This document shows positions 2,980 to 27,060 of a stretch of 32,542 bases of DNA, in pieces. Both the position numbers and the translations under genes were made by a program. The notes beneath the pieces are model-generated. The model did no database searches and was not told the origin of the DNA. It saw only the letters and a program-made list of their open reading frames with translations. The DNA comes from Methanobacteriota archaeon. GTDB taxonomy: Archaea > Thermoplasmatota > Thermoplasmata > SG8-5 > JAGLSY01. The first letter of the stretch is position 1; every line of letters starts with the position of its first letter. Where the stretch lies: assembly GCA_020697715.1 (NCBI GenBank), contig JAEHCO010000009.1, forward strand, positions 1-32,542, read 5' to 3'.

Positions 2980-3956
2980 ACAGTCAGCAGAATGCCACAT
3001 TCCAGCAGCCAATGCAACCCCAGGGCCCACCCCCTGTGATCAATACCATCAATCTGTGTAAGTGGTACGGAAATGTGATAGGCCTCAATAATTTCAATGT
3101 CCAGATCGGAGATGGCATCACAGGTATAGTTGGCCCGAATGGTGCTGGCAAAAGTACATTATTTAAGTTAATAATTGGTTCAATAAAGTCCAATGCTGGC
3201 TATATGGGCGTCATGGGACAGAAACCCTGGGGTAATACGAAACAGCTTGCCTCCATCGGCTTCTGCCCGGATTATGATTTCCTTCCTCTGAGCATGACAG
3301 GCCGCGAGTATCTGGAATTCATGGGCGGGCTCCATGCCATGGAGAAGACCCACTTGAAGAACCGGATCGCGGAACTGGCTAATATCGTGAAGATGGAAAA
3401 GGATATGGACCGTGACATGGGCGGATACAGCAAGGGCATGAAGCAGAGGCTGAAGATAGCTGGCGCACTAATCCACAATCCCAAACTTCTACTTCTGGAT
3501 GAGCCACTGAGTGGAACTGATCCAATCGTCCGAAGGGACATAATCAATCTTGTGAAGAAACTGCACAAGGAATACGGCCACAATATAATCGTCAGCTCCC
3601 ACGTGCTACATGAGATCGAGCGCATGACCAGTAATATCGTGCTAATTTACAAGGGTCGGGCGGTGGCATCTGGCAAGATATCCGAGATACGTGCCCTGAT
3701 AGACCAGCACCCGCACAATATCGTTCTGGAAGGCAAGAACATAGGAGCTCTGGCCAAATCATTCCTTGATCAACCTTACACTGTTTCCGTGGGCTATAAT
3801 CATAATCGGGAATCAATAACCATCCGGGTGACACAGCCCGATGAATTCTTCGACTCCATGCCCGCCCTTTTAGAAAATTCTGACTGCAAATTAGACAAGA
3901 TGTTCTCCCTGGATGACAATCTGGAGTCTATATTCAAGTATCTGGTGGGGTGGTAA
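2976..3956 (+). CDS. second ABC-2 type exporter ATP-binding subunit
   Basis: GPNGAGKS, YSKGMKQR, LLLLDEPL, SSH; GTGA overlap with the upstream gene; Q/P-rich N-terminal extension. Confidence 0.92.
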   Translation: MNSQQNATFQQPMQPQGPPPVINTINLCKWYGNVIGLNNFNVQIGDGITGIVGPNGAGKSTLFKLIIGSIKSNAGYMGVMGQKPWGNTKQLASIGFCPDYDFLPLSMTGREYLEFMGGLHAMEKTHLKNRIAELANIVKMEKDMDRDMGGYSKGMKQRLKIAGALIHNPKLLLLDEPLSGTDPIVRRDIINLVKKLHKEYGHNIIVSSHVLHEIERMTSNIVLIYKGRAVASGKISEIRALIDQHPHNIVLEGKNIGALAKSFLDQPYTVSVGYNHNRESITIRVTQPDEFFDSMPALLENSDCKLDKMFSLDDNLESIFKYLVGW

Positions 3957-3957
3957 T

Positions 3958-4725
3958 TTGGATCTGAACTTGAATGCCATTTACTCCGGTCTTTACGCGA
4001 TAATCAAGTACTCGACCAAGAAGATATTATTCAAAAAGCAATGGATCATCACTCTTCTGATAGTGATCCTGATGGGCTTCGTCATGGGATACGCTGGCTC
4101 ACAGGATTGGGCAGATGCTGATATACTGGATGCTGGAATGGAGCTTATGGACCTTCTGATATTATCCTTCATACTGCCTATCATCTCGATGATCTACGGA
4201 GCTTCCCTTCTGAGGAATGAGATCGAGGACAAGTCCATCACCCAGGTGATAATCGCGCCACTGGACAGGTCTATCTCTTATCTCGGATATTACATCTCTT
4301 TGGTCCTATCACTTTCTCTGATAATGGCAGTGGTCTGCATAGTTGGCTGGCTGGCATTCTTCGGCCAGGTGGGTGTCGATGGGGATGCCGCTGGAATTCT
4401 CGGCACCATGATCGTCCTGACCACCATTGGCTCGGCCGTATATTCAGCCATGTTCCTCCTGACCAGTATAATGTTTAAAAGACCAATTTATTTCGGTCTT
4501 TTCTACGCTTTCATCTGGGAGGGCTTCATAGGCTTGATGCCAGGAGCCATTGGTCAGTACACGATCAAGCATTTCATAAGATCAATAGGAGCTGGGATGA
4601 CGGATTTTGGATCATTGGGATCGTACATGGAAGCAGATGGAGGTATCTATGGGGCTCTTATCATGCTGATGATCGTATTGCTGGGCATCGGGGCTTTGCT
4701 GTTTAAAAATAAGGAATTTCCGTAG
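3958..4725 (+). CDS. second ABC-2 type exporter permease
   Basis: About 6 TM segments; LRNEIEDKSITQVIIAPLDR motif. TTG at 3958 follows the ATPase stop after 1 nt, so it is preferred over track start 3913. Confidence 0.82.
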   Translation: MDLNLNAIYSGLYAIIKYSTKKILFKKQWIITLLIVILMGFVMGYAGSQDWADADILDAGMELMDLLILSFILPIISMIYGASLLRNEIEDKSITQVIIAPLDRSISYLGYYISLVLSLSLIMAVVCIVGWLAFFGQVGVDGDAAGILGTMIVLTTIGSAVYSAMFLLTSIMFKRPIYFGLFYAFIWEGFIGLMPGAIGQYTIKHFIRSIGAGMTDFGSLGSYMEADGGIYGALIMLMIVLLGIGALLFKNKEFP

Positions 4726-4746
4726 TGGGTGATCAATATTTTTACG

Positions 4747-4972
4747 GGTGTTGGGGGGTTTTAGAAAGTTTGATCCCCCCGTCCTGCGCTCTTAGCTCGA
4801 ATCGCTCTGCTTCTCGAACTAATATTTTGCGCATTTAACGCAAAATAGGGCTTGGACGGGGTTCCGAATATCAGAGCACTCTGTGACTGTCACTCGAATA
4901 ATCATCGAATCCAGTACCCCGCCCTGCTGAATATTCTATGAATTATCCAGACGGGGCATGTTGCTGAGAATT
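4747..4972 (-). ncRNA. copy A of a repeated multi-hairpin non-coding element (candidate structured RNA or non-autonomous mobile element)
   Basis: The minus strand reads CATGCCCCGTCT-N24-GGGCGGGGTA-N4-ATTCGATGATTATTCGAGTGACAG (4960-4887), colinear with 26073-26146(+). Further stems are CCCCGTCC/GGACGGGG (4777-4784/4854-4861) and TATTTTGCG/CGCAAAATA. Confidence 0.55.
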
Positions 4973-5007
4973 ACATTGAAGAGAAAATGCTATGAATTGC
5001 TAATAAT

Positions 5008-5706
5008 TCAAACACGTTTCAGCCCAAACTCAGTCTCCAGCAGATCCATGAGCTGCGCGAAGTTCGTAAAAGTATAATCTGGCTGGATATTATGTTTATT
5101 CCTCTTCCACGGCCATTTGAGATAAGCGTTCATCATGCCCGCGTTCTTCGCTCCCTGGATATCGTATCTGAGCGAGTCTCCCACATGGAGAGTTTCTTCG
5201 GGCTTCGTGCCCATCTTCTCCATGGCCATCTTCAGCCCTGTTGGGTCGGGCTTCATCAATCCGATATCCTCGCCATTTAGAATTAATTTCCATGGATATC
5301 CCATGAACCCCATTTTCTTCATCTTGTCATGTGGTGGATAATCGGATACGACGCAGATCGGAATATCATTGGCAACCACCATGTCCAGCATATTGAAGAC
5401 ATTCTTCAAGGGTTTCACTCGATCGAAGGACGAGTTCCAGCCATCGTAAACAACTCTATCTATTTTTTTTCGTGTCCATTCAGGTGTCTTTTTCCATCGG
5501 ATGGCCATTGCCTCCACCTGCTTCTCTCGGAAGTTCTCCAGCTTCCCCTGTTTTCGAAGCTTGGAACGCTCATCTGTTAGGTCGTAGATGAGCTTCACAT
5601 GGGGCCCGAACCTATGAATTAACTTGGATACCATGATAGGATAATTGTAAAAGGTAGCATCATAATCGAATGTTATGCCAGATAGTTTTTTCACCATGAT
5701 CTTCAC
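5008..5706 (-). CDS. HAD-superfamily hydrolase (subfamily IA)
   Basis: Motif I FDYDATFY, motif II VVSD, motif III KPDP, motif IV HVGDSLRYDIQGA. Confidence 0.88.
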   Translation of the reverse strand: MKIMVKKLSGITFDYDATFYNYPIMVSKLIHRFGPHVKLIYDLTDERSKLRKQGKLENFREKQVEAMAIRWKKTPEWTRKKIDRVVYDGWNSSFDRVKPLKNVFNMLDMVVANDIPICVVSDYPPHDKMKKMGFMGYPWKLILNGEDIGLMKPDPTGLKMAMEKMGTKPEETLHVGDSLRYDIQGAKNAGMMNAYLKWPWKRNKHNIQPDYTFTNFAQLMDLLETEFGLKRV

Positions 5707-5722
5707 CTATTTTGAAATGGGA

Positions 5723-6817
5723 TCAGCCAAGTAAAAGACCCCAGGAGTATTCGCAATTGCCATTCCAATCATCCCCGCCTTCCTTATGAACTTTTCCTTC
5801 TGCATCTGTATATTCGATCTCCATTACTTCTGAAGGAAATTCATTGTAGAAGAATTTATTGCGCCAGTACTTGCGCCTTTCAAAGGTATATGTTGTTTTG
5901 GCAACCGTCCTCACCTTGATGCGGAGCCTCTCATCACCCAGCTCTCCCCAGGCCTCGAAACCCGGCAGGCCATTATCCTGCCGGAAGACATTGTATCTCA
6001 CGTGCTTGAATCTCTTAGTTGGCTGGCCAGCAGGAGTGTAGTTCAGATTCTTGTTCATAAATTTGTATTTATTGTCCGCGCTGGGCTTGCATTCCGAACT
6101 GCGTCGGAACATCAATCTGCTGAGAAATGTGGTGAAGTAAGTGAGATAAGAGCCGTCAGTCTTGTGAAAAACTCCCCAGAGCCAGGGAAATGCCGGCGTA
6201 TTTAGTGTGATATGCTGCATGTACAGGCTGCCCTCCATCTTGCGCTTGTCGCCCTTTGTGGAAAGCATGCCGGACCAATTGGCATGATAGATCTTCAGGC
6301 CGTCGAAGCCCAGGTTCTTTGTCAACATCGTGCGCTTGTAACCGACAGGCGGCGGGGTGGGTGTGACCTTGTCGATATTCAGATCAAAATCCTTTGGATC
6401 GCGGCAGAATCTGATATTGGTATTCACGCGACTGGCTTTCAACTGTACATCTTCTGAATCAATGGTCACACCACCGTCCTTGATCACGGTGGTGAACTTC
6501 ATGTTCTTGGGCTCGATCTCCTGAAATACCTTGCCATCCCAGTACCAGAAGGTGGCCATTCCATTGTATGTGAAATTGTCGGGTTGGCCAGAAAGCTCCG
6601 CAGCGGGTCCCCAATTGACACCGTTCGCCTTGACATTCTTGTATGATTTGGTTGTCCAGTAGGCGACAATTTGCTTCTTCACGCCATCTTCTTCGAAAAG
6701 GAACATCCACCACCACCATACGAAATTCCCCTTCTTGGAGAACATCCTGGCCGGTGGGAAATCCTTTATGAAATCAGGGTCAGTGGGTGGTGTGAATTTA
6801 TCAATAGGCTCGAACAT
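5723..6817 (-). CDS. hypothetical beta-rich protein, possible AttH/tocopherol-cyclase/CrtC-like fold
   Basis: Long ORF co-oriented with the HAD gene (16-nt gap). Aromatic motifs GNFVWWWWMF, PWLWGVFH.DGSYLTYF and C-terminal GNCEYSWG recall that superfamily. The fold assignment is inference. Confidence 0.5.
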   Translation of the reverse strand: MFEPIDKFTPPTDPDFIKDFPPARMFSKKGNFVWWWWMFLFEEDGVKKQIVAYWTTKSYKNVKANGVNWGPAAELSGQPDNFTYNGMATFWYWDGKVFQEIEPKNMKFTTVIKDGGVTIDSEDVQLKASRVNTNIRFCRDPKDFDLNIDKVTPTPPPVGYKRTMLTKNLGFDGLKIYHANWSGMLSTKGDKRKMEGSLYMQHITLNTPAFPWLWGVFHKTDGSYLTYFTTFLSRLMFRRSSECKPSADNKYKFMNKNLNYTPAGQPTKRFKHVRYNVFRQDNGLPGFEAWGELGDERLRIKVRTVAKTTYTFERRKYWRNKFFYNEFPSEVMEIEYTDAEGKVHKEGGDDWNGNCEYSWGLLLG

Positions 6818-6934
6818 TTTCTATCAGACTCGTGATGGTGGCTGGATATAATAAGAGTTGTGGTTTTGGCAGGCTCAATATGCTAATTGGATCATTAGTA
6901 ATTCTTTTAACACTCAAATGCATTACTTATCTTG

Positions 6935-9900
6935 ATGGAAGAGTTCGGATTGCAGCAACCGGAGCTCATTGGGAGAAGCAATGAGCTATCTTTATTGAAG
7001 AGATCATTGGAAAATGCCTTGGATCGTAAAGGCTCGACCATGTTCATCTCAGGTGAAGCTGGCATTGGAAAAACAAGGCTTGTATCCGAATTGAAGAAGC
7101 ATGCTCTTGAAAGTGGGATGAAGATAATTCAGGGCTGGTGTCTTGAAGAGGGCCTAGAGCCTTTGATGCCTGTCAAGATGGCATTGAGAGAAGCCAACAT
7201 GCAGCATTTGGTGTCTGGGGATCCACCACCCATGGTAGTATCTGCCTATCTGATAAACGAAGCTGGCATGCTCATGAACAAGGTCGAGCGAACTGAATCG
7301 GGATTGGATTCGGACATTTTCGCATCTATGTTACTGGCTGTAGGGAATTTTGTGAAGGATTCATTATCAATGATGGAAGAGGGAAGTCCAGGCAAATTGA
7401 ACTCATTAGGCTATGGTGATTTCACTATCCTCATCCAGTCAAAGAACAATCTATCGATAGCCACTGTGATAAAGGGGGCCAATAGTGAATTCCTTATCGG
7501 GGACATGAAAAGGATCCTTGAAGAGATAGGTGATGATTTCAGTGACTGGTCTGGCAATATGGAGAAGGTGGAGGTCATACAGCCAAAAATATCATGGTTC
7601 ATCAGCTCTGGTAAATATGATGGGAATTACCTGGTGGACGATCCAAAGATCAAGCAGGACAATCTTTTTGACAATGTCCTTATGGGCTTGCAGAGAGCAT
7701 CCGAGGAATCTCCCATTTTTCTCTATCTGGATGATCTGCAGTGGTCTGACCCTACATCACTGGCTCTTCTGCATTTTCTATCTAGGAACTTGAGGAAGAA
7801 TAGGGTATTGGTGCTTGGTACATATCGACCAGAGGATATTGGGCAGGCTAGTGATGGTATGCCTCATAAGCTCGAGACCACGATCCAGGCAATGAACCGT
7901 GAGGATCTTCTTGAGATAATAAAACTGGAAAGATTGGATGCTGATAATACTGAGAGAATGATATTCTCCGCAATGGGTGAAACACCTCTTGACAAGGATC
8001 TACTGGCCAGGATATTCAGGGAAACATCTGGAACTCCACTTTATGTACTTGAGGTCATTAAATTATTGGTCGAGGATGAGATAATATCAATGGCTGATAA
8101 TGGAGCCTGGCAATTGACAACAGACCTTGAAAATGTTGATATCCCCTCAAAGGTATATGATGTCATAAAACGCCGTTTAGGAAGGCTCAAAACAGATCAA
8201 AGGGATATTCTTGAATGTGCTAGTGTGATCGGGGAAGAATTTCGATCCGATATCATTGGCAGGGTCATTGGAATGAATAGGCTTCAGACATTGAAAACAC
8301 TGAATGATATTGAAAAGACCCATAAGTTGATACACAGCAAAGAGGCCAGCTATCGCTTTGACCATGCGAAGATCAAGGAGGTCATGTATTCGGATATCAA
8401 CAGCGAACTGAGAAAAGAATACCATAAGATGATAGCAGAATCAATTGAGGAATTGAACCAAGATAATATTGATGATTCTGTTTCTGAGCTGGCATATCAT
8501 TTCTTCGAGGCAAGGGATAAGAGGGCTGGTGATTATCTTATCCAGGTCGGAGATGTGGCAAAGGAGAGGTTCGCCAATGCGGAGGCGATATCATTCTACG
8601 TAAATGCCTTGGAGATCAATGGGAGGGATAAGCCAGATCCAATAACATTGAGCAAGTTGGGTAATATCAATAATTTAATTGGTGAATATGACACCGCTTT
8701 GGGATTTTTCAGAGAATCTCTAGCTTTAAGAGAGGAAGCTGTAGATAAGAAAAATGCTGCAGAGACATTGAGTGAAATCGGCCAGGTTTATTACAATAGG
8801 GGGGAGCTTGAAGAGGCGAAGATATCCCATACCGAAAGCCTGAGGATCATGGAAGAGATAGGGGATAAGCAAGGTATCGCGGCTTCAAATAATCTCATTG
8901 GCATCGTTCATTATTCGAAGAATGAATTGGAGGAAGCACTGGAATTCTTCAATAAAAGCTTGGCTATTGATGATGAGCTGAATGATGAGACTGGAAGAGC
9001 CACGACCTACAGTCATTTCGGGCTTGTGTACCATAAAAGAGGTGAGTTCGACAGGGCACTTGAATATTATGAGAAGAGCAAGGATACCAAGATGAAGATA
9101 GGTAAAAAGAATGATGTGGCCACTTTGCTCAATAATATTGGAACTATATATTCCAACCTTGGTGAAATGGATAGAGCCCTGAAATATTACAAGGAAAGCC
9201 TGGCTATCAGGATGGAGGTTGGAGATCGGAGAGGAATAGCCAGTGCTTACAATAACCTTGGAACCCTTTTCTACAAGAGAGGAGAACTGAAAAATGCTCT
9301 TGAGCATTATGAAAATAGCTTAAAGATCAAGATCGATATAGGGGTCCTTAGCACATTGTCAGTATCTTATAACAATATGGGAATAATCCACAGAGAATGG
9401 GGAGAGTTCGATAAGGCTATGGAGTATTATGAAAAAGGCCTGGCTATGGATCTGGACCATGGCAATAAGAATGTGATAGCCAAGACCATCATAAATATCA
9501 GTGAGATCATGCGAGAAAAAGGCCAGCTTGATGATTCTACAGCGAAATATCTTGAAGCCACAGACCTTTGCAGGGAATGCGGTGTGAAGGTATATCTTGC
9601 CCAGGGATTGCTGGGACTGGCTGAAACATATGTGCAAGCTGGCAAACTGGACCTCGCTCGAACGACCTGCGAAGAGGCTGAAACAATTGCCCAAGAGAGC
9701 AGTCTGAAGACTGAATATGTTGGAAGCCAGAGAATATTAGGGATCATATTCTCTGCCAAAAAGGATTGGAACGAGGCGGAAAAAAGATTCGAGAACTCCT
9801 TGGCCGGGGCGAAAGACCTGGCCGCTGAGACACTGACGGCCAAGATCAATTATTTCTATGGAAAGATGCTCTCTGAAAAAGGAGATGTAGATCGAGCCAG

Positions 9901-12129: not shown

Positions 12130-12203
12130 TGGGCCCGCCCGGATTTGAACCGGGGACTATAGCTCCCAAAGCTACAAGTCTAGCCAAGCTAACCCACGGG
12201 CCC
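12130..12203 (-). tRNA. tRNA-Pro(UGG)
   Basis: Minus strand GGGCCCG...GTAGC-TT-TGG-GA-GCTAT...CCCGG-TTCAAAT-CCGGG-CGGGCCC-A folds into a full cloverleaf; CCA not encoded. Confidence 0.95.
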
Positions 12204-16871: not shown

Positions 16872-19800
16872 TTACTCTGTCAGGTCTTCGTCATCATCCA
16901 TTGTTTCGGTATCTGGGGCAGGTTCAGTCGATGCTTCTTCTACTGCATCGACCTCCTCCTCCAGATCACTATCCTCTATTTCTTCTGCTTCCTCAGAACC
17001 TTCATCAGCCATATCCTTAGTTTCCTTACTCCCAGATCCCTTCATGAAGAGTATGGCTCCAACAATTCCAACAACGATCAATATTATGATGATCCAGAGC
17101 CAGGATGATGTGTTCTCGTCATCATCTGCATTGTCATCATCTGCATCATCATCGGTATCATCATCGTCATCTTCAACAATATCATCTAATACAAGACCTG
17201 TTGTTGAATCATCAGCTGTGTAGCCAGGGTTCCATTCATCTGGAGCTCCGTCATCGTCATCGTCCACAGATGCTGCTGGGTCAGTTGGGAAAGCATCTGC
17301 ATTGTCTCCCGTGCCGTCACCATCCGTGTCGCTGGTCTCACTGGCATCGGTTGGGAAATCATCCGCATTGTCGCCAACACCATCTGAATCAGTATCAACT
17401 GTTTCGGTTGCATCATTAGGGAAAGCATCATCTTCATCCGGCACGCCATCATCATCAGTATCGATAGGAACTACCTCAGCTCCAACCGTGTCATCCAGAG
17501 GATCCAGGTCATCAGCATCGACTACACCGTCACCATCATCGTCGGTGTCCTCATTGTTGCCTAAACCATCTCCATCAGTATCCACGGACTCATCTGGATC
17601 TGTCGGGAAGGCATCGTCCACATCATCGACCCCATCGCCGTCATCATCGGTATCTGCATTGTCACCGATGCCATCGTCGTCGGTATCGGTGTTCTCGGTC
17701 TCATCCAATGGGAAGTCATCATCTACATCATCGACCCCATCGTCGTCATCATCGGTATCTGCATTGTCACCGATGCCATCGTCGTCGGTATCGGTGTCCT
17801 CGGTCTCATCCAATGGGAAGTCATCATCTACATCATCGACCCCATCGCCGTCATCATCGGTATCTGCATTGTCTCCGATACCATCGTCGTCAGTATCGGT
17901 GTCCTCATTCGGGTCTGTTGGGAAAGCATCCTCTGTATCATCTACCCCATCGCCATCGTCGTCGGTGTCTGCACTATCATCCACCCCATCCCCATCTGTG
18001 TCTAACATCACCTGAATGGTCTCATTTGAATAAGCCACACCACCATTTCCATCACTCACAGACACTGTTAAATTATGATGACCAACGTCTGCGGCCAAGG
18101 GACTGCCAGTGAGCTCTCCTGTGGCAGGGTCAATGGATAGCCAGGCAGGACCTGCTTCCAATGCCCATGTCATAATATCGGTCGCATCCACATCAGTGGC
18201 TGTGAAGGTCTCTGTCAGGTCTTCGCTAGTCAATAGAGTGTTGGTTCCCCAGGTCGAGGTTATGATGGGAGCATCATTGGCACCGTTTATGGTTATTGTC
18301 ACGGTGGCAGTATCAAAGGCACCATTCCCATCACTGACAGTGTAACTGAATGTATCCGTTAAGCTCTCTCCGACAGCCAGTGTTTGATATGAGGTATTGC
18401 TCAAAGTGAGGTAGGTGAAGGACCCATTAGAGTTTACCACCATACCAACTCCGTTTGCTGTGTTTGCATCATTGCCAGTCACAATTATAGTGTCAGTATC
18501 ATTAGGATCAATATCATTGGCTCGGACTCCTGGTGCCGACACGCTCAAGGTAGTATCCTCATCAATTGCATAATTGTCATCAATTGCATCAGGAGGCCCA
18601 TTCAAGATCACTGCCACACCATCATCATTGTTCACAATATCTGGGTCTGAAGTGGTCGAGGTCACGGTTCCGTTGGCATAGAATATTCCGGTATCATTGG
18701 CTATGGAATCAACGACCAACCGGGCAACCTCGCCATTCATAAGCAGACCGATGTCCCAGGTGAAATTGTCATTTCCCCATGGTATCAATGTTTGATCGAA
18801 AACCACATTGCTCAGTTCACCCCCCTCCACATGGAAGGTGAAATTAACATCAAGTGCATTATTTGGTCCATTATTCGTCACATTGGCAAAGAATAGTATC
18901 TGACTGCCATTCTGAACGAGTGTGGGCGATGCCTCAAAGACCAGATCAATGTCAGCCGAGAAGGTCATTGGAGGCAGAGGCAAGAACATTGGATATTCCT
19001 GTAATTCATAAATTCCCCATACATTCGTGAAATCCCATCCAGCATTTGTGAAAGTGGATTGGGTTAACATGTCCACCGTGTTCTTCCCTGTAGCCCCATT
19101 TCCAGTCATGTGGCCAGATGTCTGATTGTCCCAGAAGCAGTTATTGGAATCTCCGTTCGGTTCTCCTAAAAAGCCGCCAACCAATGAATCGCCAGATGCT
19201 GATCCGACACTGTAGCTGTTGTTGATGACACCACCAGTCAGTTCATTCATTCCACCAAAGCCGCCAACGGTCATATTGATGGCCGAAACATCACCATGCG
19301 CGTAACAGTTCTCTATGAAGCCACTGAGAGTGTTCAGGCCCACAAAGCCGCCGACCATTGAATAGCCAGAAACAGAACCTGTCGCAAAGCTCATGTTGAC
19401 ATCTCCATCATTGGTCCCAACAATTCCTCCGACAGAATTATTACCAGATACACTGCCTTCTGTAAAGCACCGGGTGATGGTTCCCTGATTACTGCCCACC
19501 AGACCACCTGTGTTGTTGACACCAGTAACAGTACCGTAGGCTGATGAGGTGGTCAGTGTAGCGACCGGCATCCGACCCAGGAGACCGCCAGTGTTACTCT
19601 GTCCCGTCACGTTACCTCGGGCTGTGCAATTATTGATATTGTTGGAGTTCAAATTACCAATGAGACCGCCGGTATAGTCACCACCACCGGATACATCTCC
19701 GTAAGCATTGGAGTGCGATACCCCTCCGTGGCTGGAATAGCCCATAAGACCGCCGACATTGTTGCCGGTTCCATTGACTTCTCCGTATGCGTTGCATAGA

Positions 19801-25333: not shown

Positions 25334-25990
25334 ATGAAGATCAAAGATAATATTGATGCTGGCTTGGATATAAAGATCATTGTGGCTATAATGGCTGTTA
25401 TTGTGATCACAGCATCCGCCGTCTGGTATTATTCTGAGAACGATAGAAATGATGATAATGACGATATCAATGATGATCTTGGGAACAATACATCTGGATC
25501 CACCGACTATTTGAATTTCACTGGCAACTATGTCGAGCTTGTAAAATACGGGGGCCTGTCTTTCGATACCAGCCGTTTGGTTGTTTTTGAGAATGGCAGT
25601 TATTATTATTTCGATTATTACCCCAATGAGATGTGGTTCAATGTCACAGAGGAGTATAACAACATATCGAAGGAAGAATCTCAATGTCTTTATGATTATC
25701 TCAATATAAGTAATGAAGACTATGATGATTATATTGTATATCATTCACAGAAAGGAATTCTCACCAATGCCAGCTTATTGGACTCAATGTTCAATAACCA
25801 ATCATTGATCCAAGAGTTCTGTTTGTTGAACGATACATACAGGGTGTTCGAGATCACAGATGGCGGTTCACGTGCAATTCATGTAAAAATAGACAATTAT
25901 GAACATTATGTGTCCACTAACTCGGTATCTTATGATTCAGAAGTATTTATTGAATATATGGAACTGTTAATGGAAGCCGACCCAAATTGA
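25334..25990 (+). CDS. hypothetical membrane-anchored extracellular protein
   Basis: Single N-terminal TM (IIVAIMAVIVITASAVWYY), N/D-rich linker, 10 N-x-S/T sequons; GAGGTGG RBS; AT-richer than its neighbours. Confidence 0.7.
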   Translation: MKIKDNIDAGLDIKIIVAIMAVIVITASAVWYYSENDRNDDNDDINDDLGNNTSGSTDYLNFTGNYVELVKYGGLSFDTSRLVVFENGSYYYFDYYPNEMWFNVTEEYNNISKEESQCLYDYLNISNEDYDDYIVYHSQKGILTNASLLDSMFNNQSLIQEFCLLNDTYRVFEITDGGSRAIHVKIDNYEHYVSTNSVSYDSEVFIEYMELLMEADPN

Positions 25991-26044
25991 CGTAACCAGA
26001 TGGGCGATACACTGTGCCAGTAGAGCATAGAACATGCAAAGAAT

Positions 26045-26234
26045 ATTCTCAGCAGAGCGATAATTCTGCAAGCATGCCCCGTCTAAACACAGTGTATTCT
26101 CATTGTGCGGGCGGGGTATTATATTCGATAATTATTCGGGTGACAGCTGCGATGTGCCAGCAAAAGAATGAACCACTCGCTTTCAAGGCGAGTGGGAAAA
26201 CCAAACCCCGACCCGATCAAAGCAGGGTCGGGGT
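26045..26234 (+). ncRNA. copy B of the repeated multi-hairpin non-coding element
   Basis: CATGCCCCGTCT-N24-GGGCGGGGTA-N4-ATTCGATAATTATTCGGGTGACAG (26073-26146), then GCTG/CAGC, CCACTCGC/GCGAGTGG and ACCCCGACCC/GGGTCGGGGT stems, followed by a C/A-rich tract. Confidence 0.55.
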
Positions 26235-26305
26235 CCTTATCCTCACCCCACATAACAAATCCCAACTCCACACCCTCTCACCCAGCTTGACAAACCCTCA
26301 CGTAC

Positions 26306-26373
26306 CATGGAACACCCTCAATTCATAATCATAGCAAAATATATTCTAATTAAATCTATACGGGTGTTCCATG
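26306..26373 (+). promoter_or_regulatory. perfect 12-bp inverted repeat whose right arm is the rpiA RBS plus start codon
   Basis: CATGGAACACCC (26306-26317) is the exact reverse complement of GGGTGTTCCATG (26362-26373). Confidence 0.45.
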
Positions 26374-27060
26374 ACACTCACCCCCGAACAAGCCAAAAAG
26401 CTCGTTGGAGAGAAAGCAGCTGAATTCGTCAAGGACGGAATGATAGTCGGTCTGGGCACTGGCTCTACCGCGTATTACACCATTAACAAGTTAGGCGAGA
26501 TGGTCGCTGATGGCCTCGATATCAAAGCCATTCCAACTTCCAAGGCCTCGGAGAAACAGGCGATCGAAGTGGGAATCCCCCTGGTCGGTCTCGAGTTCCA
26601 CCCGGTCATCGATATCACGATAGACGGAGCGGATGAGATAGATCCAGACCTTAATTTGATAAAAGGTCTGGGTGGCGCACTCCTTCGTGAAAAGATAGTT
26701 GCCGCGGTGTCAAAGCAAGAGATAATCATCGCGGACGAGCGAAAACTTGTTCCGCATCTTGGAACAAGGTCTCCATTGCCAGTGGAGATAATACCATTCG
26801 GATTGGAGGTCTGTCTTACAAAATTGAAGCCAATGTGCAAGGATCTCAAAATGCGCATGGTTGACACAATGCCTTTTGTCACTGATAATGGAAATTACAT
26901 ACTGGATATGTATTTCGATAAAATAGACGACCCAGTTAAACTTGAGACCAGTCTGAATAACATACCTGGCGTCGTGGAGAACGGCCTGTTCATAGGCTTA
27001 GCTACATCAGCAATTGTCGAGTCCGAGGGTAGTATCAAAATATTGCAAAGACCTACTTGA
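26371..27060 (+). CDS. rpiA: ribose-5-phosphate isomerase A
   Basis: VGLGTGSTA, IDGADEID, IKGLGGALLREKIVA, LPVEIIP, TDNGNYILD, IPGVVENGLF. Confidence 0.97.
   Translation: MTLTPEQAKKLVGEKAAEFVKDGMIVGLGTGSTAYYTINKLGEMVADGLDIKAIPTSKASEKQAIEVGIPLVGLEFHPVIDITIDGADEIDPDLNLIKGLGGALLREKIVAAVSKQEIIIADERKLVPHLGTRSPLPVEIIPFGLEVCLTKLKPMCKDLKMRMVDTMPFVTDNGNYILDMYFDKIDDPVKLETSLNNIPGVVENGLFIGLATSAIVESEGSIKILQRPT

Follow-up and report, generated by a model that had tools for sequence, protein, structure and literature searches.

Palindrome-associated transposable elements (PATEs), IS200/IS605 derivatives that carry no genes, have been described in Haloquadratum, Halobacterium (VNG_R0052) and Geobacillus (PMC4615843, PMC10055086). 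In the portions of these two papers that we draw on, PATEs are a left end (LE) fused to a right end (RE) and are transcribed (PMC4615843), they are mobilised in trans by TnpA, and they often encode omega RNAs (PMC10055086). The same portion of the first paper reports that a PATE-derived RNA is expressed and affects growth in Halobacterium, and that the archaeal RNA HgcC carries an RE-like tetraloop of IS200/IS605 (PMC4615843). A second group, the REP, BIME and REPIN sequences, is presented in the relevant part of PMC2817692 as abundant extragenic imperfect palindromes with a fixed 5' tetranucleotide, which form mosaics, are depleted at promoters and are linked to HUH Y1 enzymes. Archaeal MITEs (Sulfolobus SM elements, Halobacterium) are surveyed in a review that lists no Thermoplasmata MITE in the sections drawn on here (PMC10969869).

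Here we describe a repeat from an uncultured Thermoplasmata archaeon that we interpret, with a probability of roughly 0.65, as a PATE-like, gene-less, non-autonomous derivative of IS200/IS605. A search of the literature found no description of this repeat family.

A family of structured intergenic repeats

The initial annotation of the 32,542-nt stretch of DNA analysed here (the window) had paired two 74-nt cores, the reverse complement of 4887-4960 (copy A) and the + strand of 26073-26146 (copy B), as colinear without gaps, and our re-alignment agreed. Both cores carry CATGCCCCGTCT, a 24-nt spacer, GGGCGGGGTA, a 4-nt spacer and an ATTCGAT.ATTATTCG.GTGACAG block, as had been reported; the pattern CATGCCCCGTCT-N24-GGGCGGGGTA has two matches in the window versus none in 100 dinucleotide shuffles. 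The hairpins previously drawn in the spacers, the GTGC-loop hairpin and the CCCCG...CGGGG terminal stem are all present in both copies, their stems do require G:U pairs in the orientation proposed, and a co-oriented gene does lie 5' of each copy, encoding a HAD hydrolase (copy A) or a 218-aa ORF without assignment (copy B). What had to be revised was the extent of the element, which had been drawn too short for both copies. Copy A spans about 4746-5007 on the - strand, occupying nearly the entire intergenic gap, and copy B about 26014-26296 on the + strand (Table 1). The terminal stem of copy A (4777-4861) surrounds a nested 60-nt two-hairpin insert that is absent from copy B, and the two copies represent two tail subtypes, type I and type II, within one family. 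The leader of copy A is also found at the orthologous locus of a related genome, G003, and the extra hairpin of type II has compensated variants in other copies (e.g. TCCTCGC/GCGAGGA and CTCATCGC/GCGATGAG). The only ORF across copy B (26014-26328) matched no Pfam family, and the element has no protein-coding capacity, as indels between copies are not multiples of three.

Table 1. Parts of copies A and B and their neighbouring genes, in window coordinates.
Feature	Position	Strand	Remarks
HAD hydrolase gene	5008-5706	-	upstream of copy A
Copy A leader	4961..5007	-	degenerate ~16-nt GCATATTCYCARCA-like units; immediately after HAD hydrolase stop codon
Copy A CATG + SL1	4916..4960	-	CATG at 4957-4960
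Copy A SL1 5' arm	4949-4957	-	GCCCCGTCT
Copy A SL1 loop hairpin	4925-4948	-	24 nt
Copy A SL1 3' arm	4916-4924	-	GGGCGGGGT
Copy A centre	4887..4915	-	degenerate H2 region ATTCGATGATTATTCGA, then conserved GTGAC 4889-4893
Copy A GTGC-loop hairpin and linker	4862..4886	-	linker ATATTCGGAA, ahead of SL2
Copy A SL2	4777..4861	-	5' arm CCCCGTCC 4854-4861; 3' arm GGACGGGG 4777-4784
Copy A nested insert	about 4787-4846	-	~60 nt, two hairpins, in SL2 loop
Copy A type I tail	4746..4776	-	GGATCAAACTTTCTAAAACCCCCCAACACCC
ABC-2 membrane protein gene	end at 4725		convergent with copy A
Copy B leader	26014..26072	+	GTGCCAGTAGAGCA... with ATATTC units; 24 nt past stop of ORF 25334-25990
Copy B CATG + SL1	26073..26117	+	5' arm 26076-26084; 3' arm 26109-26117
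Copy B SL1 loop hairpin	within 26085-26108	+	CACAGTG/CATTGTG
Copy B centre	26118..26161	+	GTGAC 26140-26144; GCTG-CGATGTGC-CAGC hairpin 26146-26161
Copy B extra hairpin	26173..26195	+	CCACTCGC-TTTCAAG-GCGAGTGG; type II copies only
Copy B SL2	26206..26233	+	CCCCGACCC, loop GATCAAAGCA, GGGTCGGGG
Copy B type II tail	26234..26296	+	TCCTTATCCTCACCCCACATAACAAAT and second tail-like CACCCAGCTTGACAAAC
rpiA gene	start at 26371		downstream of copy B

An iterated nhmmer search of the 2.1-Mb genome (G000), a count that the initial annotation had suggested, gave 46 hits at 41 loci. An exact pattern gave 32 hits in the same genome versus none for a reversed control. The copies are scattered across 10 contigs beside unrelated housekeeping genes, and they form mosaic, BIME-like arrangements with other repeat modules. 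Elements are 125-300 nt long with three conserved hairpins and share one plan, which runs 5' to 3' through a leader, CATG, the stem-loop SL1, the hairpin H2, GUGAC, the stem-loop SL2 and a short tail; the span from CATG to the end of SL1 is 25, 33, 44, 45 or 46 nt. The pattern occurred in all genomes of two families of one uncultured Thermoplasmata order (f1, 4/4; f4, 13/13), to which the element is common, in none of two other families (f2, 0/2; f3, 0/2) and in one of 39 genomes from further families. The same architecture was seen in G004, G010 and G020. When genome contigs were scanned with the pattern, 23 of the 80 matches listed were archaeal, and all the archaeal matches listed were labelled Thermoplasmata, Ca. 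Proteinoplasmatales, Methanomassiliicoccales or Methanobacteriota MAGs.

The earlier view that structure is conserved while sequence drifts held up: SL2 and H2 show compensatory changes, and hairpins of different sequence occupy the same place in other genera. The 9-bp stem of SL1 contains three G·U pairs and does not vary among the aligned copies (49 of 49); these had been selected by a pattern fixing the first seven of nine 5'-arm bases, the preceding CAT and six 3'-arm bases. Because the three G·U pairs are fixed, folding of SL1 is strand-specific. SL2 is 98% paired with double changes at five of eight pairs; of 88 copies, 75 form seven of seven pairs and the remainder mostly have one mismatch. 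H2, for which rows were picked without a pairing criterion, is 91% paired versus 73% in shuffles, has double changes at seven of eight pairs and is a covarying hairpin in other genera. The motif [GTA]TGAC follows SL1 in 88 of 95 occurrences. The basal loops of SL1 and SL2 are GNRA tetraloops (GUAA or GUGA), and SL1 (GCCCCGUCU/GGGCGGGGU) resembles SL2 (CCCCGNCU/GGNCGGGG), both being subterminal, on one strand and with G·U pairs; together they form a direct, not inverted, hairpin pair. The nested ~60-nt insert has eight copies in the genome, seven of which sit at a loop apex of SL1 or SL2. Readings of the centre as a C/D-box sRNA, a hammerhead or a K-turn were dropped by eye, the motifs not being kept in other genera.

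Placement, turnover and an IS200-type tnpA

Elements start 14-80 nt past the stop codon of the upstream gene. By a crude longest-ORF gene caller, on which all our orientation statistics rest, this gene is co-oriented at 33 of 39 loci in G000 (p 1.4e-5) and at 17 of 24 in G003, and the G000 copies lie in 17 convergent, 17 tandem and 3 divergent intergenic regions (expected 7.3, 20.7 and 9.0). Along the 956-kb contig C11 no strand blocks of elements were seen by eye, a weak test of lagging-strand targeting. On direct reading, the TATA-like ATATTC units lie too near CATG to serve as the element's own promoter, and the promoter spacing is not conserved.

Empty sites, which the initial annotation had proposed looking for, were found: at the position orthologous to copy A, G003 and G001 carry an element and G002 does not, and at least six G003 elements stand opposite an empty G000 site. 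One locus, L180, offers a clean filled/empty junction, without target duplication or terminal inverted repeats, and the left flanks of copies show no firm shared target motif. Hairpin cassettes have been exchanged at 11 orthologous pairs between congeneric genomes. Elements at orthologous sites are far better conserved than the flanking genes, with an identity at L192 of about 96% (counted on the alignment) versus 86.7% for the HSP. Among the ORFs of larger G003-specific insertions beside elements we saw, by reading, no transposase; the same reading found membrane proteins and a small RHH/RelE-like pair.

A single Y1 transposase gene is present in G000 and is intact; its 164-aa product carries the HVH and Y motifs and scores 116 bits on the NCBIfam IS200 model (cut-off 55). 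CATG, SL1 and H2 of the element are colinear with the first ~200 nt of one IS200 tnpA subclade, except that the element lacks the ~100 nt enclosed by a long-range helix. In the G000 gene and its closest homologs the order is that of the element: (C)ATG..GCCCCGTC, about 120 nt, GGCGGGGT, then GCCATCGAAT..AATTCGATG. The homologs with arms are those of G010 (76% amino acid identity), G014 (71%) and the metagenome locus L255 (62%), and all three arm-bearing tnpA genes from genomes lie within element-bearing families. Extended or compensated arms vary (CAGCAC/GTGCTG, CCGGAATC/GGTTCTGG, GCCTCGT/ATGAGGT), the helix being based on four sequences with two double-changed pairs. The colinear matches between tnpA and element are short and each is weak (blastn E 0.02 to 3 in a tiny database).

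We looked for a full-length IS with tnpA between SL1 and SL2 plus tail and found none; SL2 plus tail lies downstream of tnpA at 0 of 15 loci in the order, here sampled by 22 genomes only, and at 0 of 5 metagenome loci. The three genomic arm-bearing tnpA copies all lack an SL2-type right end, that of G000 running into msrB, and the flanks of the G000 gene are free of the element. In G014 and other f4 genomes different GAATGC-type hairpins lie downstream of tnpA, and likeness to the right end is limited to a CCCCGA motif, resembling the 5' arm, at the tnpA stop in G014 and G010. TnpA homologs occur across the order regardless of the element, including f2 (2/2) and f3 (2/2); no homolog was found in G002 (74% complete) or G004 (83% complete), both of which bear the element. 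Congeneric homologs are 68-69% identical and sit in different gene contexts.

Weighing the explanations

As the initial annotation had suggested, we ran cmscan against Rfam. No family reached its gathering score on the element, the only such hit in the window being a tRNA at 12130-12203, and at E<=10 copies A and B gave chance-level hits alone, with no ribozyme, riboswitch or HgcC. HgcC was reportedly discovered by Klein et al. in 2002. Sub-threshold hits of this family (RF00062) fall on the element in 12 of 13 f4 genomes, with none in f2 or f3; they reach 17-29 bits (best 28.9, in relatives) against a gathering score of 50, and G000 has none. From these sequence comparisons the 3' half of the element appears to resemble HgcC RNA weakly, which somewhat lowers the novelty of the element. 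In G000, PF07282 matched none of 29 candidates and PF01385 none of six; PF07282 was not found above cut-off in the 4 f1 or the 13 f4 genomes, and Rfam returned nothing at E<=0.5 on 11 TnpB loci of relatives. The reverse transcriptase domain PF00078 had no match in G000, and retro-mobility was therefore dropped.

The initial annotation had left two choices, an ncRNA family or a mobile element recognised as a single strand. The evidence favours the second, given the many copies, the presence/absence polymorphism and the colinearity with a Y1 tnpA. Most likely, then, we are dealing with a further case of a known type of selfish DNA rather than with a novel class of RNA. Under the PATE-like reading, the mobile form would be single-stranded DNA. 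Its similar top-strand hairpins SL1 and SL2 would be recognised by a Y1 (HUH) TnpA acting in trans, which would excise and insert the element without terminal inverted repeats or target duplication. Variable hairpin cassettes would be exchanged by ectopic recombination between copies. Co-orientation could arise if insertions are viable only where they spare promoters and coding regions, and possibly also if the non-template strand of transcribed DNA serves as the single-stranded target. With the element behind a co-oriented gene, we propose read-through transcription from that gene, which would place the same GNRA-capped hairpins, now as RNA, at the 3' end of the mRNA. Several observations weigh against this reading. 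No parent IS with an SL2-plus-tail right end was found, and TnpA homologs are present across the order irrespective of the element. The LE hairpins of studied IS200/IS605 elements are compact, and a hairpin with a 120-nt loop is unlike them. There is a single clean filled/empty junction, no target motif could be established in left flanks, no strand blocks hint at lagging-strand targeting, and the HgcC scores are far under the gathering score.

The strongest competitor, to which we give clearly less weight than to the PATE-like reading, sees the element as a functional family of structured RNA, serving in the 3' UTR or as a small RNA like HgcC and transcribed together with the upstream gene or behind it. 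The GNRA-capped hairpins would be kept by selection acting at the RNA level, for example for 3'-end exonuclease protection or protein binding, and the family would have spread via recombination, not transposition. Much of the evidence suits it: the placement 14-80 nt behind a co-oriented gene at 33 of 39 loci, the strand-specific fold through G·U pairs, the GNRA basal tetraloops on both stems, the compensatory changes in SL2 and H2, the tolerance of insertions at hairpin apexes only, the conservation of orthologous elements beyond that of flanking genes (about 96% versus 86.7% at L192), the weak HgcC likeness, and the expressed PATE RNA with its growth effect in Halobacterium, as given in the part of PMC4615843 drawn on here. 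Every one of the structural features, however, is equally expected of single-stranded DNA ends, and a 5' part apparently derived from a transposase gene, presence/absence between congeners at many loci beside unrelated housekeeping genes and the lack of conserved promoter spacing all argue against it. We doubt, but consider worth stating, a further step beyond selfish DNA, in which read-through HgcC-like RNAs, in lineages that have lost TnpB, were recruited as 3'-UTR modules. If so, the GNRA-capped hairpins would define where mRNAs end or how stable they are, or would titrate or regulate the Y1 transposase, and the swapping of loop cassettes would be a fast-evolving layer of post-transcriptional control; in a bolder variant, the RNAs would guide a still unrecognised RNA-guided protein.

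Two other readings tie the element to known transposon-derived systems, and both appear improbable. The copies could be orphan omega-RNA-like guides, that is, TnpB-type (IS1341) right ends whose flank-reading transcript guides a nuclease encoded elsewhere. The HgcC-like scaffold, with its terminal GC hairpin followed by AGG(A/U)G(G/U)UC, fits such guides, as does an HgcC-like hit directly 3' of a TnpB zinc-ribbon match in G027. Right ends of TnpB elements in other Thermoplasmata are a hairpin plus AGGATGTCA, compared with GGGG-ATGTTCAAA or GGGG-AGGTCAA here, and PATEs often encode omega RNAs according to the portion of PMC10055086 used here. Opposing this, no TnpB domain was found in G000 and the 17 other f1 and f4 genomes have no PF07282 match above cut-off, at E<=0.5 Rfam matched nothing at the relatives' TnpB loci, and it is tnpA, not tnpB, from which the 5' half appears to descend. 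Slightly less probable again is a REP/RAYT-like domesticated system, with REP-type hairpins kept by a single-copy, vertically inherited tyrosine transposase. G000 does have a single Y1 transposase gene, many extragenic imperfect palindromes behind the fixed tetranucleotide CATG and mosaic, BIME-like arrangements, but the transposase scores 23.8 bits on REP_Tyr_transpos (cut-off 80) versus 116 on IS200, its gene is not flanked by the repeats, and the hairpins are direct, not inverted doublets. Moreover, because its congeneric homologs are so diverged and differ in context, it is not a syntenic single-copy gene. Finally, the presence of just two copies inside the window might have reflected a local duplication in decay or a likeness by chance, without any wider family; the 46 genome hits, the absence of shuffle matches and the retention of the element in 17 other genomes of two families refute this, and we assign it a negligible probability.

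Comparison with known systems

The PATE-like reading would account for about 40 structured intergenic regions that carry no annotation in this genome, and for similar numbers in related uncultured Thermoplasmata, and it guards against mistaking such regions for a new class of ribozyme or riboswitch. It would also supply a worked example of an IS200-type element decaying to a gene-less hairpin repeat that retains the transposase start region. Because placement behind co-oriented genes is strong and hairpins turn over like cassettes, the family is a useful natural system for asking whether single-strand transposons target transcribed DNA, and whether read-through transposon RNAs gain host functions.

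A classical MITE is bounded by terminal inverted repeats, and the DDE transposase that moves it leaves a target duplication. The element is likewise small, non-autonomous, multi-copy and intergenic, but we rejected this assignment, as its termini, GCAGAGCAT... and ...AACAAAC, do not form an inverted repeat and no target duplication is seen at the L180 junction. Integron attC sites form arrays beside intI, with one bottom-strand hairpin following every cassette; this assignment was rejected too, since the copies are spread over 10 contigs by housekeeping genes and have two to three separate hairpins each. Like REP, BIME and REPIN sequences, the element is an extragenic, abundant, mosaic and Y1-linked imperfect palindrome with a fixed 5' tetranucleotide, CATG, and it too is under-represented at promoters. 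It differs from REPs and REPINs in its direct hairpins, in its enzyme (an IS200-type TnpA, not a RAYT) and in its greater length of 125-300 nt with three conserved hairpins.

TnpB omega RNAs (reRNA/sotRNA) share with the element a structured 3' scaffold at the transposon's right end, closed by a GC-rich hairpin and a short conserved tail; here no tnpB was found next to the element or elsewhere in the genome, and the 5' half appears to derive from tnpA. HgcC (RF00062, Methanocaldococcus jannaschii) has the same order of features: a hairpin, GAUGA/GGUGA, UGAC, a terminal CCCCGCCC-loop-GGGCGGGG hairpin and AGGAGGUCA-like bases. HgcC lacks the CATG and SL1 module, and the element scores below the HgcC gathering score. 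The likeness suggests that archaeal HgcC-like RNAs, too, are part of the wider world of IS200/IS605 ends.

The closest match is to PATEs. The element has no ORF, appears to consist of a left-end part fused to a right-end-like hairpin and is present in many copies; it carries similar hairpins at both ends on one strand and, at the single clean junction, shows neither terminal inverted repeats nor a target duplication. Here, too, a Y1 TnpA in trans is the likely mobiliser, and published PATEs are so mobilised and are transcribed, according to the sections of PMC4615843 and PMC10055086 used here. Compared with PATEs, no parent element sharing the right end was found, and the host lineages are without detectable TnpB. 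The left part contains the transposase start codon and a long-range helix over the first ~45 codons of the parent gene, co-orientation behind genes is strong, and the hairpin loops are swappable as cassettes, with nested inserts.

Plan, fold and repeat context of the element

The initial annotation had paired two stretches of the window as copies of a structured non-coding repeat (hereafter the element), copy A on the minus strand and copy B on the plus strand. The reverse complement of 4887-4960 indeed aligned without gaps to the plus strand of 26073-26146, with the shared blocks as listed there, and the composite CATGCCCCGTCT-N24-GGGCGGGGTA occurred twice in the window and in 0/100 dinucleotide shuffles. 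RNAfold recovered the hairpins described in the spacers, the hairpin with the GTGC loop and the terminal CCCCG...CGGGG stems; the terminal stem of copy A contains a nested insert. The resemblance stood and the proposed spans did not, the elements being longer, about 4746-5007 and 26014-26296. The reported position 3' of a co-oriented gene held for both copies, behind the HAD-type hydrolase gene (A) and the 218-aa ORF (B). An ORF overlapping copy B (26014-26328) had no family match. The sole Rfam match of the window at the gathering score was a tRNA gene at 12130-12203 (minus strand).

The repeat had been read as an unannotated ncRNA family or a single-strand-recognised mobile element, and many copies were found in its genome (G000; a 93.8% complete assembly of 2.12 Mb in 34 contigs, of which the window is C34): BLAST and four nhmmer rounds gave 33, 44, 46 and 46 matches at E<=0.01, and the 46 matches represent 41 loci. 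The printed copies share a single plan: a leader, CATG, a first stem-loop (SL1), a centre with a terminal GUGAC, a small hairpin, a second stem-loop (SL2) and a tail, which in G000 is of type I or type II.

In a MAFFT alignment of 49 copies, preselected by a pattern fixing most of SL1 and a 7/7 pairing rule for SL2, pairing in SL1 and SL2 was 99%, versus 95% when shuffled and 47-68% with slid partners. SL1 is invariant in these rows and includes three G.U pairs; in SL2, five of eight pairs are doubly changed, one position showing CG, UG, GC and UA. The 7/7 rule is weakly selective: [GTA]TGAC comes after 88 of the 95 SL1 occurrences, 75 of these 88 have a 7/7 SL2, and in most of the other 13 the SL2 has a single mismatch. 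Hairpin H2 of the element, scored in 24 copies selected without a pairing criterion, paired at 91%, versus 73% shuffled and 24-44% slid, with double changes at 7/8 pairs. Wobbles are exclusively G.U on the element strand and the fold is therefore strand-specific, a property compatible with RNA and with top-strand single-stranded DNA alike.

Intergenic regions are BIME-like mosaics of repeat modules. A two-hairpin insert of 57-60 nt was found eight times, in seven cases at SL1 or SL2 loop apices and in one at the hairpin apex of another repeat. Invariably placed at a hairpin-loop apex, it resembles a separate mini-element that targets loops. Another, second repeat module, CTTTTTTCTTTA.CC.TCGCTGTGCTGG ... 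CCAAAGAAAAAAGACGGACAAA, is a frequent neighbour of the element, and contigs C32 and C12 are broken inside composites of the two. A third, CACTCCTCCGCTGG ... GGCCTGCTCGGAGTG, is kept across genera and frequently adjoins the element.

Table. Positions and sequences of the element, its neighbours and related features (C, contigs of G000; L, fetched loci)
Feature	Location	Strand	Sequence or relation
HAD-type hydrolase gene	window 5008-5706	-	flanks copy A, same orientation
ABC-2 membrane protein gene	window 3913-4725	+	flanks copy A, convergent
218-aa ORF, no assignment	window 25334-25990	+	flanks copy B
rpiA	window 26371-27060	+	flanks copy B, other side
Leader			1-3 degenerate ~16-nt GCATATTCYCARCA units
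SL1			GCCCCGUCU ... GGGCGGGGU
SL2			CCCCGNC ... GNCGGGG
Type I tail	e.g. copy A		GG(A/G)TCAA(A/T)CTTTCT...
Type II tail	e.g. copy B		extra hairpin + TCCTTATCCACACCCAGCTTAACAAAC
Two-hairpin insert			TATTTTGCG..CGCAAAATA + TAGTTCGA..TCGAACTA
Insert in SL loops (7)	window 4787-4846; C28:168558, C11:68477, C11:270668, C11:42424, C22:109829, C15:1-41		
Insert in another repeat's hairpin (1)	C29:70528		
Second repeat module	G000 C22 about 215,150-215,240; C28 about 96,700-96,850; C12; G003 L180 about 6,800-6,950		
Third repeat module	G000 C11 about 161,100-161,160; G003 L191 about 1,130-1,200; many G004 loci		in G004, immediately upstream of CATG
Subclade tnpA start			(C)ATG, then after 0-6 nt GCCCCGTC (GCCTCGTT in L255)
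Subclade tnpA, about 120 nt further			GGCGGGGT (GATGAGGT in L255)
Subclade tnpA, immediately next			GCCATCGAAT...AATTCGATG
f4 region, three hairpins			TTGAATGC..GCATTCGAC, GGTGAATGCGA..GCATTCGCC, CCGGTAATC..GATTACCGG

Distribution, turnover and position relative to genes

The pattern CATGCCCCGTC-N8-36-CGGGGT matched 32 times in G000, versus 0 for a reversed control pattern, and was present in 19 of the 61 genomes compared. Within the order, it occurred in the family of G000 (f1; 4/4 further genomes) and in family f4 (13/13) and was absent from families f2 (0/2) and f3 (0/2); other families of the class contributed one match, in 1/39 genomes. Among 80 matches listed in a scan of species-representative genomes, 23 were archaeal, labelled Thermoplasmata, Candidatus Proteinoplasmatales, Methanomassiliicoccales or Methanobacteriota MAGs, and the non-archaeal matches listed were one each, in G+C-rich bacteria. 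The plan was found again in another f1 genus (G004) and in two f4 genomes (G010 and G020), where the basal element is about 125 nt, GNRA tetraloops (GUAA or GUGA) cap both stems and H2 forms a clean hairpin, with a sequence that varies by genus.

At the orthologue of copy A, the congeners G003 and G001 carry an element, and G002 has an intergenic gap of ~10 nt. A comparison of 20 G003 loci (24 SL1 occurrences) to their G000 counterparts showed at least six elements opposite an empty G000 site (L176, L181, L187, two in L191 and the second in L180), and three more lie within larger indels. One junction is clean, ...TTTAGAT / GCAGAGCAT...AACAAACCGAAT / CTAGTGC..., and neither a duplication nor inverted ends are present at it. 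At 11 sites filled in both genomes the conserved parts are near-identical; the L192 element is about 96% identical (counted on the printed alignment), versus 86.7% for the spanning HSP. Between such orthologous elements, H2 or the loop of SL1 or SL2 is replaced blockwise, and one site is type I in G000 and type II in G003. From the filled and empty sites and these swaps, therefore, copies exchange segments and the family turns over at the time scale of species divergence. A separate observation concerns G000 contig C15 (599 bp, with an element copy), which shares 98.7% identity with a G003 locus across 299 nt, versus about 85% outside C15; this suggests that a stray fragment from another strain or species entered the assembly.

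With genes called by a crude longest-ORF caller, the upstream gene is co-oriented with the element at 33 of 39 G000 loci (binomial p 1.4e-5), at 14/17 loci in tandem regions alone and in 17/24 cases in G003. Observed against expected, regions are convergent 17/7.3, tandem 17/20.7 and divergent 3/9.0 (p 1.6e-4). Because many loci are shared by descent, neither p value refers to independent events. The upstream stop usually lies 14-80 nt from the core start.

Links to an IS200/IS605 transposase and to HgcC

The sole Y1 transposase gene of G000 (C1:16308-16799, minus strand; 164 aa, HVH and Y motifs) scored 116 bits against the NCBIfam IS200 model (cut-off 55) and 23.8 against the REP-associated model (cut-off 80). 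Homologs of this gene, tnpA, are spread over the order (f1 2/4, f2 2/2, f3 2/2, f4 9/13), so the distribution of the gene family does not follow that of the element. Element motifs lie within one tnpA subclade, comprising the G000 gene, its closest homolog in G014 (71% aa), a frameshifted G010 copy (76%) and metagenome locus L255 (62%), G014 being, like G010, an f4 genome. Their order is that of CATG, the SL1 arms and H2 in G010 elements. The helix extends inward with complementary though divergent sequence (CAGCAC/GTGCTG in G000, CCGGAATC/GGTTCTGG in G014), and RNAalifold predicted the extended helix, including the start codon. The SL1 loop of G010 begins with TGAATC and ends with ATCTGGAG (compare CCGGAATC ... 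GGTTCTGGTAG in G014), as if it were a G014-like helix whose ~100-nt interior had been deleted. SL1-type arms were absent from eight other tnpA homologs inspected, and the arm-bearing genes from genomes (3/3) all fall within the two element-bearing families. Individual matches are short (blastn E 0.02-3, tiny database); the case rests on colinearity and recurrence and not on a single score.

Two further features lie near tnpA. An imperfect palindrome of ~100 nt upstream of the G000 gene (C1 about 17215-17300; L031/L032), beside a 90-nt tRNA-Phe, has outer repeats AGTCACGAT.../...ATCGTGACT and a centre of two inverted hairpins with an element-type stem (CCCCGTCC-TTAC-AGACGAGG); the 29-mer ACAAGCCTCGTCTGTAAGGACGGGGTATA or near variants lie ~100-250 nt from tnpA in G001, G006, G009, G013 and G020. 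The palindrome may represent a target or an end of IS200, or else a site of integration. The motif (A/G)TACTTTC(A/G)CCCACCCC, 10-12 nt ahead of a TTTATATA-like box, precedes tnpA and some other genes (L032-L043), an arrangement that resembles a promoter type characteristic of the lineage; parts of it have look-alikes in the type I tail and in the linker that precedes SL2 in G010 (TCATCCTTTTAAAG).

Rfam HgcC gave matches below threshold, at 17-29 bits versus a gathering score of 50, initially on two copies of G020 and subsequently on copies from 12/13 f4 genomes, with 0 matches in f2 and f3 and 0 on G000 copies. The alignment pairs H2, GGUGA, UGAC, SL2 and an AGG.GGUC tail. Gomes-Filho et al. 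(2015, PMC4615843) describe in HgcC a tetraloop hairpin like that at the right end of IS200/IS605 (IS1341-type) elements. In G027 one HgcC-like match lies immediately 3' of a TnpB zinc-ribbon match. We found neither TnpB nor a reverse transcriptase in G000, and no TnpB over the cut-off in 17 other f1/f4 genomes. SL2 with the tail followed tnpA at 0 of 15 loci in the order and 0 of 5 metagenome loci; the f4 copies have different hairpins downstream. A non-coding region with three hairpins is kept about 250 nt downstream of tnpA in f4 loci L033, L037, L038, L040 and L043, in some cases with another partial tnpA behind it; it differs from the element and probably represents the right end of a different IS200 group.

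Interpretation and comparison with known elements

The best-supported reading is that the element is a non-autonomous IS200/IS605 derivative resembling palindrome-associated transposable elements (PATEs), which are gene-less; its conserved hairpins would act in cis, as ends that are recognised on the top strand. The right end is the weakest link of this reading. We infer transposition, a target motif and any role of read-through RNA. The main rival, an RNA module of 3' UTRs that is kept by selection, is compatible with most of the structural facts, and such an RNA role may be additional to a transposon origin, not an alternative to it. For PATEs themselves, left ends joined to right ends and one copy expressed as RNA are described by Gomes-Filho et al. 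(2015, PMC4615843), and according to Meers et al. (2023, PMC10055086) TnpA is predicted to mobilise PATE-like elements in trans, and such elements often encode omega RNAs.

We found no published description of the family in the literature searched; the archaeal MITEs named in the relevant passage of a review are only those of Sulfolobus, Halobacterium, Haloquadratum, Desulfurococcus and "several other" genomes (PMC10969869). The kind is known from PATE, REP-like and HgcC-like elements, and what is new is the family itself as a member of that kind. Four of its traits are new as well: its putative left end includes the transposase start, its hosts are without detected TnpB, its cassettes are swapped at hairpin loops, and it is located behind co-oriented genes.
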